From a virus (Duplodnaviria > Heunggongvirae > Uroviricota > Caudoviricetes), in IMG/VR virus record IMGVR_UViG_2541047816_000005, positions 1 through 47,623 of that record: a DNA stretch of 47,623 bases; one strand, 5' to 3'. Under the pieces are notes generated by a model. The model was not told the DNA's origin. It made no database searches and worked only from the letters and a program-made list of their open reading frames with translations. This document shows positions 16,997-23,127 of this stretch, in pieces (within the stretch, counting starts at the first letter, position 1; each line of letters starts with the position of its first letter). The translations under genes were made by a program, and so were the position numbers.

Positions 16997-17892
16997 TTTC
17001 CGCCTCCTGCATCCCGCCCACGTTTTGCAGCCAGGGTCCAGGCTGATGAATGAGCTTCTCCGGGTTTATCTTCGGTCATACTGTTGCAGTGCCACAGCGA
17101 GCCCCCCCACGTCACCGTATCGCCGGGGTGGTAGGTTTCACCGGCTCTGAACACACCGCGGTAGAGCATCACCGGCAGGGAAAATGTTTTTTCCGTACGC
17201 TGGCCACTGCTCTGCCGGACCACCACAGAGAACAACCGCTCACCCGTCATGCTGACGTCAATATCCGCCACCCCGTCAACCAGGCATTCCCATCCCCGCA
17301 TCCCGTGCGTTTTTTCATACGCCCGCCAGAGTCCGCCCTGGTGTGTGGCATACGTGCCCCGGGGAAAGGATTTTTGCTCATCAATCGCCGGGAATATTTC
17401 CAGTGCCGTGGCATCACGCCCGTCCTGTGGAGCCGGCAGGGCACTCACCGCATCCAGAACCGCCTTCTGCAGAACTTCCGGATCGTAGTCACGACCGTCG
17501 CGCGGAACGGGGATATGACTCACTGCGTCCTTCACCATCTGCTCGATCATCGGGCGTACATCATCCGCAGTGACACTTTTACCGTCCGCCGGTACCGGTA
17601 TTTTCGCGACCGCATCATTCACCGCCTGCTGCAGCACCTCCGGATCATAATCACGACCATCGCGCGGTACCGGAATGGCCCCCACGGCGTCATTCATCAT
17701 CGCCTGCAGAACAGGGCGCACCTCATCCACCGTCACATGCTTCTGTAACAGAGCAGACAGGGAAGCCAGTTTCTCTTCAAACGCCCCCGACTGTGCGGCC
17801 ATCTTCTCCTCAAATGTGCGCTGTAAATCCGCCAGCACCGTGGCGAATTCTTCACCCAGCGCACGGATAATGGACAGTTCACGCTCTGTCAT
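16993..17892 (-). CDS. head-associated protein with internal tandem repeats (possible decoration protein)
   Basis: 299 aa; repeated IPVPRDGRDYDPEVLQ.AV.DAV units and N-terminal coiled coil; mirrored by DNA repeats near 17460-17690. Confidence 0.5.
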   Translation of the reverse strand: MTERELSIIRALGEEFATVLADLQRTFEEKMAAQSGAFEEKLASLSALLQKHVTVDEVRPVLQAMMNDAVGAIPVPRDGRDYDPEVLQQAVNDAVAKIPVPADGKSVTADDVRPMIEQMVKDAVSHIPVPRDGRDYDPEVLQKAVLDAVSALPAPQDGRDATALEIFPAIDEQKSFPRGTYATHQGGLWRAYEKTHGMRGWECLVDGVADIDVSMTGERLFSVVVRQSSGQRTEKTFSLPVMLYRGVFRAGETYHPGDTVTWGGSLWHCNSMTEDKPGEAHSSAWTLAAKRGRDAGGGK

Positions 17893-19253
17893 TTTCGCAG
17901 TATCCCCCTGAACATCGCCTTCACCGCATCACGCTCTGTTTCGCTTATGGCCTTATTACCGTCAGATGCGCCGTCAGGCAGTTGTGATGAAACTGTTTTC
18001 CCGGTCGACGCGAACGGATCCTCACGGGCATCACGACGGGACAGCGCCTCCAGACTGTAGTTCTGCTGCTGAAGATACAGTGCATCACCGCCGGCCAGAG
18101 GCGGCAGGTTCTCCCGTTTACGGGCCTCATTGGGCGTGAGAAGCGTATTTTTCACCGCATCCCCCAGCGTTTTCATGCGCCGCTCACTGTCCATTCTCAG
18201 CAGCGTGGTGACATCAAATTCTGTACTCTCGTTTTCCCCCGTTTCCAGCGCCTCATCCAGTAACAGTTCAATGGACTCAATCAGCGTCTGCAGGCACTGG
18301 GAATAATACTGCTGCTCCAGCGCCTCCACGTTGTCACTGGAAGGCGGTTGTCCCACGCCAATCTTGTAGGCCGGGACACGGAACACCGAACAGACAATTT
18401 CAGCAGTCATCTTCAGTTGTTCCACCGTCTGCGCATCCACCGGTGAAAACGTCGTGGGGTTGTATTTTGCCCCGTTGCTCAGAATGGCCGTTTTCCCCGC
18501 ATTTTCGCCTGTATACCCGCTGTCCCAGTTGCTCTTCAGTTTTTTCGCATTTTCTTCCGTAATACTGCCGGGGATCTCAATCACCCCGGACGGCCTGCCG
18601 CCATTTCTGAAAAAAGACGTTGAATTTGCCTGAATATGATGCCCCTGCGTGGCCGCCAGCCCGGCAGCATACACCGGCGGCAGCCCCACAAGCGGATGAA
18701 AAAAACAGTTAAACCGGTCGTGGATCACTTCCCTGGCAGGCACCGTCACCGCCTCAGTGATCCCGCAGTTCCGGTCCGGTGTAATGCGATAGAACACCTC
18801 GCCGTCATCCGCCACCAGAGGTTCAACCCGGCTCCAGTCCAGAATACGCAGTTCTTTGATCTGCCCCCGGGAGTTACGGATTTTCAGCACCACCGTATTG
18901 CCGTGACGCAGTTTGGCGTTCAGCCACAGTTCAAAAAACTGGATACGATTCTGCTGTGCATTGGGACGACGACAGAGACGGGCAATATCCCCCTGCCGTT
19001 TTTCACGGCGGATCCCCTGTGTATCGGTCTGCATCAGGCGCAGCCGCATTTTGGCGATATCCTGGGATATCAGCGAAATGCAAGAAAACACCGCGTGAAA
19101 GGACAAAACGGTTTCCGGATCGGCTTTCACACCCTGCTGCCAGGCACCGGCAAAAGGCTCAGCCACCGCCTGAAACAGGCTGGTCCAGCCCACCTCTTTT
19201 ACATCACGTCCTGATTTCTGGTTTTTTCGGGTTCGCCACAAAAGGTTCCACAT
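17889..19253 (-). CDS. portal protein (HK97 family)
   Basis: 454 aa; SFHAVFSCISLISQDIAKM and FFRNGGRPSGVIEIPG...FRVPAYKIGV resemble conserved portal blocks. Confidence 0.75.
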   Translation of the reverse strand: MWNLLWRTRKNQKSGRDVKEVGWTSLFQAVAEPFAGAWQQGVKADPETVLSFHAVFSCISLISQDIAKMRLRLMQTDTQGIRREKRQGDIARLCRRPNAQQNRIQFFELWLNAKLRHGNTVVLKIRNSRGQIKELRILDWSRVEPLVADDGEVFYRITPDRNCGITEAVTVPAREVIHDRFNCFFHPLVGLPPVYAAGLAATQGHHIQANSTSFFRNGGRPSGVIEIPGSITEENAKKLKSNWDSGYTGENAGKTAILSNGAKYNPTTFSPVDAQTVEQLKMTAEIVCSVFRVPAYKIGVGQPPSSDNVEALEQQYYSQCLQTLIESIELLLDEALETGENESTEFDVTTLLRMDSERRMKTLGDAVKNTLLTPNEARKRENLPPLAGGDALYLQQQNYSLEALSRRDAREDPFASTGKTVSSQLPDGASDGNKAISETERDAVKAMFRGILRK

Positions 19254-19464
19254 TCGCCATGCTCCGCATCACGTTTCTTTTTCTGACCTGCCGGACGTCG
19301 CACTGTGATGTACTCCGCCTTCCCCAGGCGAACCAGCACCTCCGCACACGGCTGTGCCACATCACGGATATCCCCGGCCCGGGCATCATGCGTGCCCTGC
19401 AGATACTGGATTTTTGCCATCAGTTACTGCGGGAAGCTCGCGCCTCCCGCCCTCCTCATCAGAC

Positions 19465-21402: not shown

Positions 21403-21465
21403 ATCAGCCTCCTGAAAATAAAAAAACCGCCGGAGCGGTTCGTGATGGTTACAGTGTGAACAGGG

Positions 21466-23127
21466 TTATATGAAAAAAACCGCATATTCTTTCTTTTTCG
21501 GTTCCGGGTTAAGGGACATCAGGGAGACCGCATTGAACAGCGCCATCAGCGGGTCAATTTTTCCCCGTCCACTGGCCTGTTTGGTGATAAGAATGGCGTT
21601 ACCTTTAGGCTCCACCCGGGCATTGCCGACACACCAGGCCATCAGGGGCTGGTCACCATGCACCAGCACCCCTTCAGCCAGTTTGCGCTCGGTGGTTTTA
21701 ATGGCCCCGCCCAGTTTCCAGCCCTGGCTTATCCCCACCACAATTCCGTCGGGGATCCCGGCTTCCGCCAGTGAATCCAGAATCTGCCCCACCCCTGACG
21801 GGTCAATACCGATATGGTCCAGTAACTCAGCCTCATGAATGCGACGCACATATTCCGCCACTTCCGCCGTGTCATCCCCGACACGCCGGACAATGGTCAT
21901 ATCTCCACAGGCAACAAGATCCTGAAACCGGGACGCCTCGCTCTTCCGTCGGACCACCGCGGTTTCATGCGCCCAGGCATGGCCCCAGCCCAGCCATTCG
22001 CGGGTCTCCCGGTCACGCCCAATCACATACATCCCCAGCAGATCATCCAGCCCTCCGCCGTCAATCCCCACCGTCACCACATCAGCACGACGCAGGATAT
22101 CGTCCAGGCTGATACAACGGCCCTGCTCTTCCCAGAAATCAGCCCCCGCCCAGCGGTCAGAGCGCAGGGCAAGACCAATTTCCACATTGGCGTGTTTTGA
22201 CATGAACCCCCGGAATGTCTCTTCACCGGCTTCCCGGGCTTTACGGTACTCCCGGTACAGAAAGGCCTCATCCACTGAATAGCCGAGATTCGGATTGACC
22301 ATGGCGAGGTTTTCCATCAGCAGGTGAGCCCCGCTTTCCACCATTTCAGGAGGGTGTTCAAATATCACCGGCAGAAAGTGCGGATCATTAATTTTGCCGT
22401 CGCGCACATCCCGGGCGTACTGCAGTTTCTGTCTGAACACCCCGGCTGGCTGTTCATTCGACTGGGTGGTCGTATACACCACAAACCCTTCCGGGCGGGA
22501 GGCAAGCCCGCCGATGGCTTCACGTAACATGTCCTCCGCCTTGTACTGCTTGCCAAACAGCCACAACTCATCAATCAGCGTCCCCACGGACTTGATACCG
22601 GACACCGTATTCGGATCGGCTGCCACCACCTTCAGGGTGGTGTCCGTCACCCGGTGGGTGATGGTCCGGATATGTGTCTGCACCTGACAGAGGTCATCCA
22701 GATCATCGTCCCGTCGTACCATATCCCTGGCAGGATTGAAGGCGTTGGCTGCCACCTCCACAGTCGGGGCCAGAATCGTGTAACCCGCCGCCTGCCGCCA
22801 GTTCAGTAACAGCGCCGTCATCATGATCCCGGCGGCCAGTGTGGACTTGCTGTTTTTTTTGGGTATCAGAATGAACACTTCCTTGATATGGCGGACACCG
22901 GTCTGCGCATCGTAGGAGCCAAACAGAGCCGCCACCAGGTCAAACACCCACTGTGCACAGGACTCCCCGAACGTCGGGCTACCCGGTGCATCCACAATCC
23001 GCAGTTGTTTAAAAATAGCCAGGGCATGTGCGGCCTGGTCCGGATAAATCGGAGCCGGAATAATCGACAGCCCCTTTTTCAGGCGCTCTGCCCAGTCCGG
23101 GCAGGCCGTGCTCCATACAGGTATCAT
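21466..23127 (-). CDS. terminase large subunit
   Basis: 553 aa; Walker A-like LIPKKNSKST and C-terminal nuclease region; overlaps terS. Confidence 0.9.
   Translation of the reverse strand: MIPVWSTACPDWAERLKKGLSIIPAPIYPDQAAHALAIFKQLRIVDAPGSPTFGESCAQWVFDLVAALFGSYDAQTGVRHIKEVFILIPKKNSKSTLAAGIMMTALLLNWRQAAGYTILAPTVEVAANAFNPARDMVRRDDDLDDLCQVQTHIRTITHRVTDTTLKVVAADPNTVSGIKSVGTLIDELWLFGKQYKAEDMLREAIGGLASRPEGFVVYTTTQSNEQPAGVFRQKLQYARDVRDGKINDPHFLPVIFEHPPEMVESGAHLLMENLAMVNPNLGYSVDEAFLYREYRKAREAGEETFRGFMSKHANVEIGLALRSDRWAGADFWEEQGRCISLDDILRRADVVTVGIDGGGLDDLLGMYVIGRDRETREWLGWGHAWAHETAVVRRKSEASRFQDLVACGDMTIVRRVGDDTAEVAEYVRRIHEAELLDHIGIDPSGVGQILDSLAEAGIPDGIVVGISQGWKLGGAIKTTERKLAEGVLVHGDQPLMAWCVGNARVEPKGNAILITKQASGRGKIDPLMALFNAVSLMSLNPEPKKKEYAVFFI

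Follow-up and report, generated by a model that had tools for sequence, protein, structure and literature searches.

The 47,623-nt stretch of viral DNA analysed here (the window; IMG/VR record IMGVR_UViG_2541047816_000005, Caudoviricetes) contains a block of virion genes in which a fused prohead protease-major capsid gene precedes the portal gene. This block is very probably the head-assembly module of a lambdoid Escherichia coli prophage of the 2851/1717/YYZ-2008 type, with an inherited, fixed order: small terminase subunit (TerS), large terminase subunit (TerL), the fusion, a small open reading frame (ORF), the portal, an accessory gene that we call Ext, and an adaptor. An earlier note on the window had called terminase, fused protease-capsid and portal in this order, had set it against the canonical HK97 order of TerS, TerL, portal, protease and capsid, and had asked whether the departure reflected a module rearrangement or a wrong portal call. 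The HK97 record confirms the canonical order, and the proposed order in the window was borne out, since the ORFs lie where they had been placed (553, 645 and 454 aa) and the hidden Markov model (HMM) identities agree. As to the choice that the note had posed, the module order is genuine and the portal call stands, but a rearrangement peculiar to the window does not, because the order is lineage-wide.

Gene identities in the head module

All genes of the module lie on the minus strand, and they were called from the ORF list with Pfam, NCBIfam and PHROG profile searches and BLASTP (Table 1). In the 553-aa ORF both TerL_ATPase (PF03354; 45.2 bits, cut-off 23.7) and TerL_nuclease (PF20441; 37.9 bits, cut-off 24) were matched, and the joint presence of the ATPase and nuclease domains identifies it as the large terminase subunit. 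The 645-aa ORF, in which protease and capsid had been read as one gene, matched Peptidase_S78 (PF04586) at residues 48-152 with 34.6 bits (cut-off 21) and Phage_capsid (PF05065) at residues 386-635 with 54.7 bits (cut-off 24.2), as well as TIGR01554 major_cap_HK97 at residues 204-584 with 77.8 bits (cut-off 27.5). On the PF05065 and TIGR01554 scores, the 645-aa protein is assigned to the HK97-fold major capsid proteins. It also matched PHROG 617, 'major head protein', over residues 1-639 (E 4e-260), and other PHROG families bear names such as 'major head and protease protein'. The 454-aa ORF scored 355.9 bits against TIGR01537 portal_HK97 (cut-off 112.05) and 274.2 bits against Phage_portal (PF04860; cut-off 39.1), the alignments covering positions 2-343 of 343 in the former and the whole 321-position profile in the latter, and HK97 gp3 matched it by BLASTP with an E value of 2e-24. 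The searches of both ORFs against portal, protease and capsid models, which had been proposed as the check, were positive for both, and the gene calls and their order are confirmed by match scores far beyond chance.

Conservation of the order across a phage lineage

The 5.2-kb head segment recurs at 90-100% identity. It is present in 1255 of 5426 complete E. coli genomes, at 2992 places and with a maximum of seven copies in one genome. It also occurs in 93 phage records, most of them from phages that convert their hosts to Shiga toxin (Stx) production of types Stx1a, Stx2a and Stx2c, among them 2851, 1717 and YYZ-2008. A protein search returned 2132 homologs of the fusion. The best 120 of these mostly carry both PF04586 and PF05065, the full-length ones being about 645 aa long, and come from Escherichia, Salmonella, Klebsiella, Enterobacter, Serratia, Pantoea, Kosakonia and other genera. 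The fusion was also found in BP-4795, in Salmonella phage FSL SP-016, and in phages of Stenotrophomonas, Burkholderia, Ralstonia and Moraxella.

Gene order was then read by tblastn with the window's proteins in 23 loci, taken from one genome per species. The order was conserved in 22 of them, in which the identity of the fused protein falls to about 48%, the exception (L105) having no recognisable terminase match, and loci that reach far enough show TerS, TerL, the fusion, the small ORF, the portal, the post-portal gene and the adaptor. TerL, fusion, portal, Ext and connector occur together in Enterobacter, Kluyvera, Citrobacter, Pantoea, Rouxiella and Phlomobacter, and also in Metapseudomonas, Pseudorhodoferax, Methylobacterium, Haematobacter and Brucella, where the fusion is 47-50% identical to that of the window; the fusion and the order are conserved across classes of proteobacteria. 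Two loci depart from the fusion itself while retaining the portal after the capsid gene. In Brucella daejeonensis (L104, 7001-9024) protease and capsid lie in different frames, as a 206-aa ORF followed by the capsid gene, and in the metagenome-assembled Prevotella genome of L105 (5181-8404) each has its own gene, the two being separated by a 415-aa ORF. The Pseudorhodoferax locus has an inserted ORF of 1184 aa (L098, 9058-12612), which follows the fused capsid gene and precedes the portal.

The order shared by E. coli, phages and distant genera indicates that the layout is a lineage trait that is already in the databases, and the comparisons argue that it is an old, fixed and inherited property of a widespread phage lineage. 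The arrangement is already known and annotated, in phages 2851 and PAJU2, and among phages of this group it is nothing unusual. In actinobacteriophages, too, genes are routinely annotated as 'capsid and protease fusion' (PMC9671004, PMC9753647). A limited literature search on phage 2851, on BP-4795 and on remarks about gene order brought up no relevant paper. The order 'portal before capsid' is conventional without being obligatory: about one in four complete E. coli genomes, as well as Stx phages of clinical importance, have the capsid-before-portal layout. No functional meaning of the portal position downstream of the capsid gene has been demonstrated; all of them seem to belong to a single co-oriented block of genes, so that their order need not affect timing.

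Anatomy of the fused protease-capsid gene

The 645-aa ORF begins with a GTG codon that is preceded, 6 nt upstream, by an AGGAGG tract. In its protease domain, HK97 gp4 aligned by BLASTP (E 1e-7) such that gp4 H65 and S114, which we take to be the catalytic residues, correspond to H55 and S110, and both positions are invariant in 12 homologs (alignment A1). The protease domain is followed by a linker, at about residues 160-192, that varies in both sequence and length in the same alignment. Next comes a scaffold-like segment, consisting of a helical hairpin (195-261) and then a disordered stretch. The AlphaFold2 (AF2) model of the 645-aa protein is poor, with a mean predicted local distance difference test (pLDDT) score of 41 from a shallow alignment of closely related sequences, and is of use for the coarse layout only: a beta-rich part (1-138), disorder (138-193) and the helical hairpin. 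The two helices, 195-223 and 229-261, are the sole part modelled with confidence (pLDDT 77-81). Capsid proteins of the HK97 type have a scaffold ('delta') segment at the N-terminus, to which the residues from Met193 onward may correspond. For the capsid domain, a profile search of the PDB matched the major capsid protein 9d9w (E 8e-6).

The NCBIfam model of the same domain combination, NF045541 (prohead protease/major capsid protein fusion protein), gave 53.5 bits against a cut-off of 525 and aligned to residues 49-264 only. This score is far below the cut-off, indicating that the window's fusion is a member of another fusion family.

The proposed mechanism is analogous to that of HK97. The protease would be brought into the procapsid by its covalent bond, via the flexible linker, with the scaffold-like segment at the N-terminus of the capsid protein. 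Once the shell has assembled, it would remove both itself and the scaffold segment, and a mature capsid protein of about 350 residues would be left.

A candidate internal translation start at Met193

We compared the 21 full-length fused ORFs, namely that of the window and 20 from the species loci, in the part where the scaffold-like segment begins. Twenty of them have, at Met193 or one to two codons earlier, an in-frame ATG that follows a purine-rich, Shine-Dalgarno (SD)-like tract; the exception is the Pantoea locus L094, where the junction is read through. Met193-Asn is invariant and begins the predicted helical hairpin, and the amino-acid linker around the start is otherwise variable. In the Enterobacterales the tract is AAGGA or AAAGGAAA, with a predicted SD pairing energy of -5.3 to -6.2 kcal/mol, within the top 4-13% of positions in the gene. 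In two homologs of 48% identity (L100 and L102) the tract is AAGGAGGG or GAGGAGGG, with -12 kcal/mol, within the top 0.3-0.6% of positions.

These features raise the possibility that translation from Met193 yields a second capsid precursor, 453 aa long and free of the protease, for which we put the chance at about even. If Met193 were used, most subunits of the shell would come without a protease, and the dose of protease would be set at translation, in parallel with the nested C/Nu3 genes of lambda and UL26/UL26.5 genes of herpesviruses.

A rival account, to which we give only slightly less than an even chance, is that all capsid subunits are made as the full 645-aa polyprotein, with protease and capsid in a 1:1 ratio, and that Met193 is the inherited first residue of an ancestral capsid protein that does not serve as a start. 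This account is consistent with the one continuous ORF and its strong AGGAGG start signal, and there could be structural reasons to keep Met193. It is less easily reconciled with an ATG and purine tract retained in all but one of the full-length fused ORFs while adjacent residues vary, and with the canonical GGAGG in the most distant homologs. Nested starts are, moreover, a known solution in lambda C/Nu3, HSV-1 (herpes simplex virus 1) UL26/UL26.5 and HFTV1 gp17/gp17.5 (10.64898/2026.09.13.751334).

Several points weigh against a nested start, and against the wider reading of the fused gene in which it is embedded. The internal SD-like tract of the Enterobacterales is only moderate (-5.6 kcal/mol, top 4-13%), as the polyprotein account would have it. 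The loci are phylogenetically related, so that conservation of Met193 and of the tract could reflect constraints on the protein. In the protease domain, TIGR01543 (proheadase_HK97) gave 46.5 bits for the 645-aa protein, and the NCBI cut-off is 59. BLASTP of the capsid domain against HK97 gp5 found no significant similarity, and the AF2 model of this domain failed (pLDDT of about 25). Finally, cleavage, the mature N-terminus and the use of Met193 are all inferred, in part from the HK97 analogy.

The portal gene and the G5/G6 junction

In E. coli AR_0017, the Prokaryotic Genome Annotation Pipeline (PGAP) labels an identical portal copy 'phage portal protein, frameshifted', spanning the 454-aa ORF and the next one, and in phage 2851 a single 859-aa ORF stands in place of the two genes. 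The junctions of the window and phage 2851 differ by one G, with five in the window (G5, 17908-17904) and six in the phage (G6); the positions concerned are 17889-17908 of the window (minus strand) and 4787-7366 of L002. The one-ORF form with G6 ranges from 734 to 1023 aa.

The label, the 859-aa ORF of phage 2851 with its one extra G, and the 859-position profile of PHROG 2271 could all be taken to mean that the 454-aa ORF is only the first part of a pseudogene broken by a frameshift, the intact version encoding a portal protein of about 860 aa. We regard this as very improbable, given that the 454 aa span both portal HMMs from one end to the other. In 16 of 20 species loci, including those of Metapseudomonas and Brucella, and in PAJU2, a portal ORF with a length of 441-479 aa runs into the next gene by an ATGA overlap. 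Exact-pattern counts in IMG/VR gave 94 G5 and 41 G6, and among 80 close IMG/VR relatives G5 occurs on at least six junction haplotypes and G6 on a single one. In these relatives, the ORF downstream of the portal is intact in nearly all G5 copies. The conserved ATGA junction and the spread of G5 over haplotypes argue that the two-gene form is ancestral and that the portal of the window is complete. That PGAP calls it 'frameshifted' most likely comes from the choice of the one-ORF form as reference.

The Pantoea locus L094 carries an independent, in-frame portal fusion of 1243 aa (9184-12915). Together with the G6 form, this makes at least two separate origins of a fusion between the portal and the next gene, a hint that their two products work jointly. 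Low-level -1 slippage could also be possible in the G5 form, where a rare AUA codon comes after GGG at GGGGGAUA.

The idea that the order or the fusion stems from faulty assembly or sequencing, or from a recent rearrangement in this genome alone, has only the departure from the HK97 order in its favour. It can be dismissed, since the sequence is found, identical or nearly so, in more than 1200 complete genomes that were assembled independently and in 93 phage records, and since distant genera share the layout. Recent rearrangement, assembly error and a wrong portal call are each ruled out by the E. coli and phage copies, the species loci and the ATGA junction.

The post-portal gene Ext

The protein encoded by Ext has a conserved helix at the N-terminus, then 27-aa helix-loop repeats whose number varies, and a beta-rich C-terminal domain that is again conserved. 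In the G5 copies of near-identical prophages its length is 245, 299, 353, 407, 461 or 569 aa, that is, it changes in steps of 54 aa (two 27-aa units), and the copy in the window is 324 bp shorter than those of E. coli AR_0017 and phage 2851. The portal-Ext fusion of L094 has about 22 repeats. Tandem Repeats Finder detected no DNA repeat in 16900-18000, although the 27/54-aa protein repeats are obvious in alignments.

The last ~45 residues resemble CBM5/12 chitin-binding modules; the Pfam CBM_5_12 match (E 1.2e-4) scores below the cut-off of the family. Foldseek with the AF2 model of Ext gave short local matches to chitin-binding domains (root-mean-square deviation 0.7-1.9 A over ~45 residues), with global E values of at least 0.008 and none at E <= 0.001; this model is of low confidence (mean pLDDT 52, from a shallow alignment of closely related sequences) and serves for the coarse layout only. 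A search of the PDB with an Ext profile found nothing meaningful. The names that Ext carries in databases, 'portal protein' and 'gp6-like head-tail connector', appear to be transferred annotations. Of practical value for annotation, PGAP's 'frameshifted portal' for an identical copy of this allele is probably wrong, and the downstream gene owes its incorrect name, 'portal protein', to transfer of the label given to the one-ORF form.

The nested start and the G5/G6 junction are modest leads. In their most far-reaching reading, the fused gene would be a three-in-one nested gene with two products, a scaffold-capsid protein from Met193 and a protease-scaffold-capsid protein of full length; as a separate matter, Ext would be an unrecognised portal-associated virion protein with a variable-length spacer and a carbohydrate-binding-like tip, and the G5/G6 tract would switch between the two-gene and the one-gene form. 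We consider this reading possible but rather unlikely.

Other features of the region

Table 1 Features of the head module and its surroundings, with positions in the window.
Feature	Coordinates	Strand	Basis or remark
Small terminase subunit, 187 aa	23124-23687	-	Pfam Terminase_2 33.3 bits, cut-off 26.1
Large terminase subunit, 553 aa	21466-23127	-	TerL_ATPase and TerL_nuclease; PHROG 9 E 2e-144
Hairpin and T-run, terminator-like	21424-21441	-	Between TerL stop and fused-gene start; consensus scan
Fused prohead protease / scaffold-like segment / major capsid gene, 645 aa	19465-21402	-	Pfam, NCBIfam, PHROG
Protease domain, ~residues 1-160	20923-21402	-	Peptidase_S78; candidate catalytic His55 and Ser110
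Candidate internal translation start, Met193	20824-20841	-	AAGGA 20841-20837, ATG 20826-20824
Scaffold-like ('delta'-like) segment, ~residues 193-290	20533-20826	-	TIGR01554 alignment start at 204; AF2 helices
HK97-fold major capsid domain, ~residues 291-645 and stop codon	19465-20532	-	PF05065, TIGR01554
Conserved ORF, 73 aa	19199-19420	-	PHROG 829 (unknown function) E 7e-39
Portal, complete, 454 aa	17889-19253	-	TIGR01537 E 2.2e-106; PF04860 E 1.9e-81
G5 tract	17904-17908	-	12 nt before portal stop; G6 allele fuses portal and next gene
Portal-coupled accessory gene (Ext), 299 aa	16993-17892	-	ATGA overlap with portal stop
gp6-like head-tail connector (adaptor), 108 aa	16670-16996	-	PF05135 and TIGR01560, both above cut-offs

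The conserved 73-aa ORF between the fused gene and the portal, which the earlier note had omitted, overlaps the start of the portal gene by 55 nt at its 3' end. By tblastn it was seen at this place in 15 of the 23 species loci, with 40-56% identity, and it is annotated as hypothetical in E. coli. The sequence directly upstream of it has no obvious ribosome-binding site; a GAGGAGGG tract lies about 30 nt upstream, ahead of a small hairpin. PAJU2 has a 72-aa ORF at the same place.

At the other end of the module, the 187-aa ORF is annotated as the terminase small subunit in identical E. coli copies. Just upstream of it is an HNH endonuclease gene (121 aa, 23977-24342), so annotated in an identical E. 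coli copy. The pairing of an HNH endonuclease with the small terminase subunit is typical of HK97-like cos packaging systems. The gp6-like connector is the first gene past the head module.

The hairpin between the TerL and fused genes is GC-rich. Terminator-like sites in the region are at chance level by the consensus scan (7 found, 6.7 expected), and no regulation is claimed. The hairpin and T-run seem to be conserved in the Buttiauxella and Pantoea loci L086 and L095, where a similar sequence is read as 'RFGGFF' in upstream-extended ORFs. In HK97, putative terminators flank the capsid gene block.

Comparison with known systems

The closest relatives of the module are the Stx-converting lambdoid phages of the 2851/1717/YYZ-2008/BP-4795 type, whose head segment has the same genes in the same order with 95-97% DNA identity. 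Phage 2851 (genus Pankowvirus) is 95.3% identical to the window over the head segment, to which this comparison is confined, and its capsid and portal genes bear the labels 'major head protein/prohead protease' and 'portal protein'. It bears the G6 allele, with portal and Ext in one ORF and two more 54-aa repeat units, whereas the window has the G5 two-gene form.

PAJU2 (Detrevirus), a phage with a Pseudomonas host, shows the same layout at greater distance. Its ORF001-ORF008 comprise TerS, TerL, ORF003 ('prohead protease fused capsid protein'), two small ORFs, the portal, ORF007 and the adaptor. The fused protein is 48% identical to that of the window over its full length, and a 334-aa gene overlaps the portal stop by 4 nt, as Ext does in the window. 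Two small ORFs lie between capsid and portal in PAJU2, as against one in the window.

HK97 (gp1-gp5) shares with the window the families of the portal, the S78 protease and the HK97-fold capsid protein, a putative N-terminal scaffold-like segment and the aligned His and Ser of the protease. The arrangement differs: in HK97 the portal lies ahead of the protease, and protease and capsid are separate genes, whereas in the window the fused gene lies ahead of the portal. HK97 has no Ext-like gene between the portal and the capsid block, and the two capsid domains are not alignable by BLASTP.

For the candidate start at Met193, the appropriate comparison is with lambda C/Nu3, HSV-1 UL26/UL26.5 and HFTV1 gp17/gp17.5, in each of which the long product bears the protease and a shorter, in-frame product arises from an internal start. 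The C-terminal part common to both products is, in those cases, a scaffold protein of its own, whereas in the model for the window it would be a scaffold-like segment together with the capsid protein itself. If true, a start at Met193 would extend the protease dosing of lambda and the herpesviruses to capsid proteins that carry their own scaffold.

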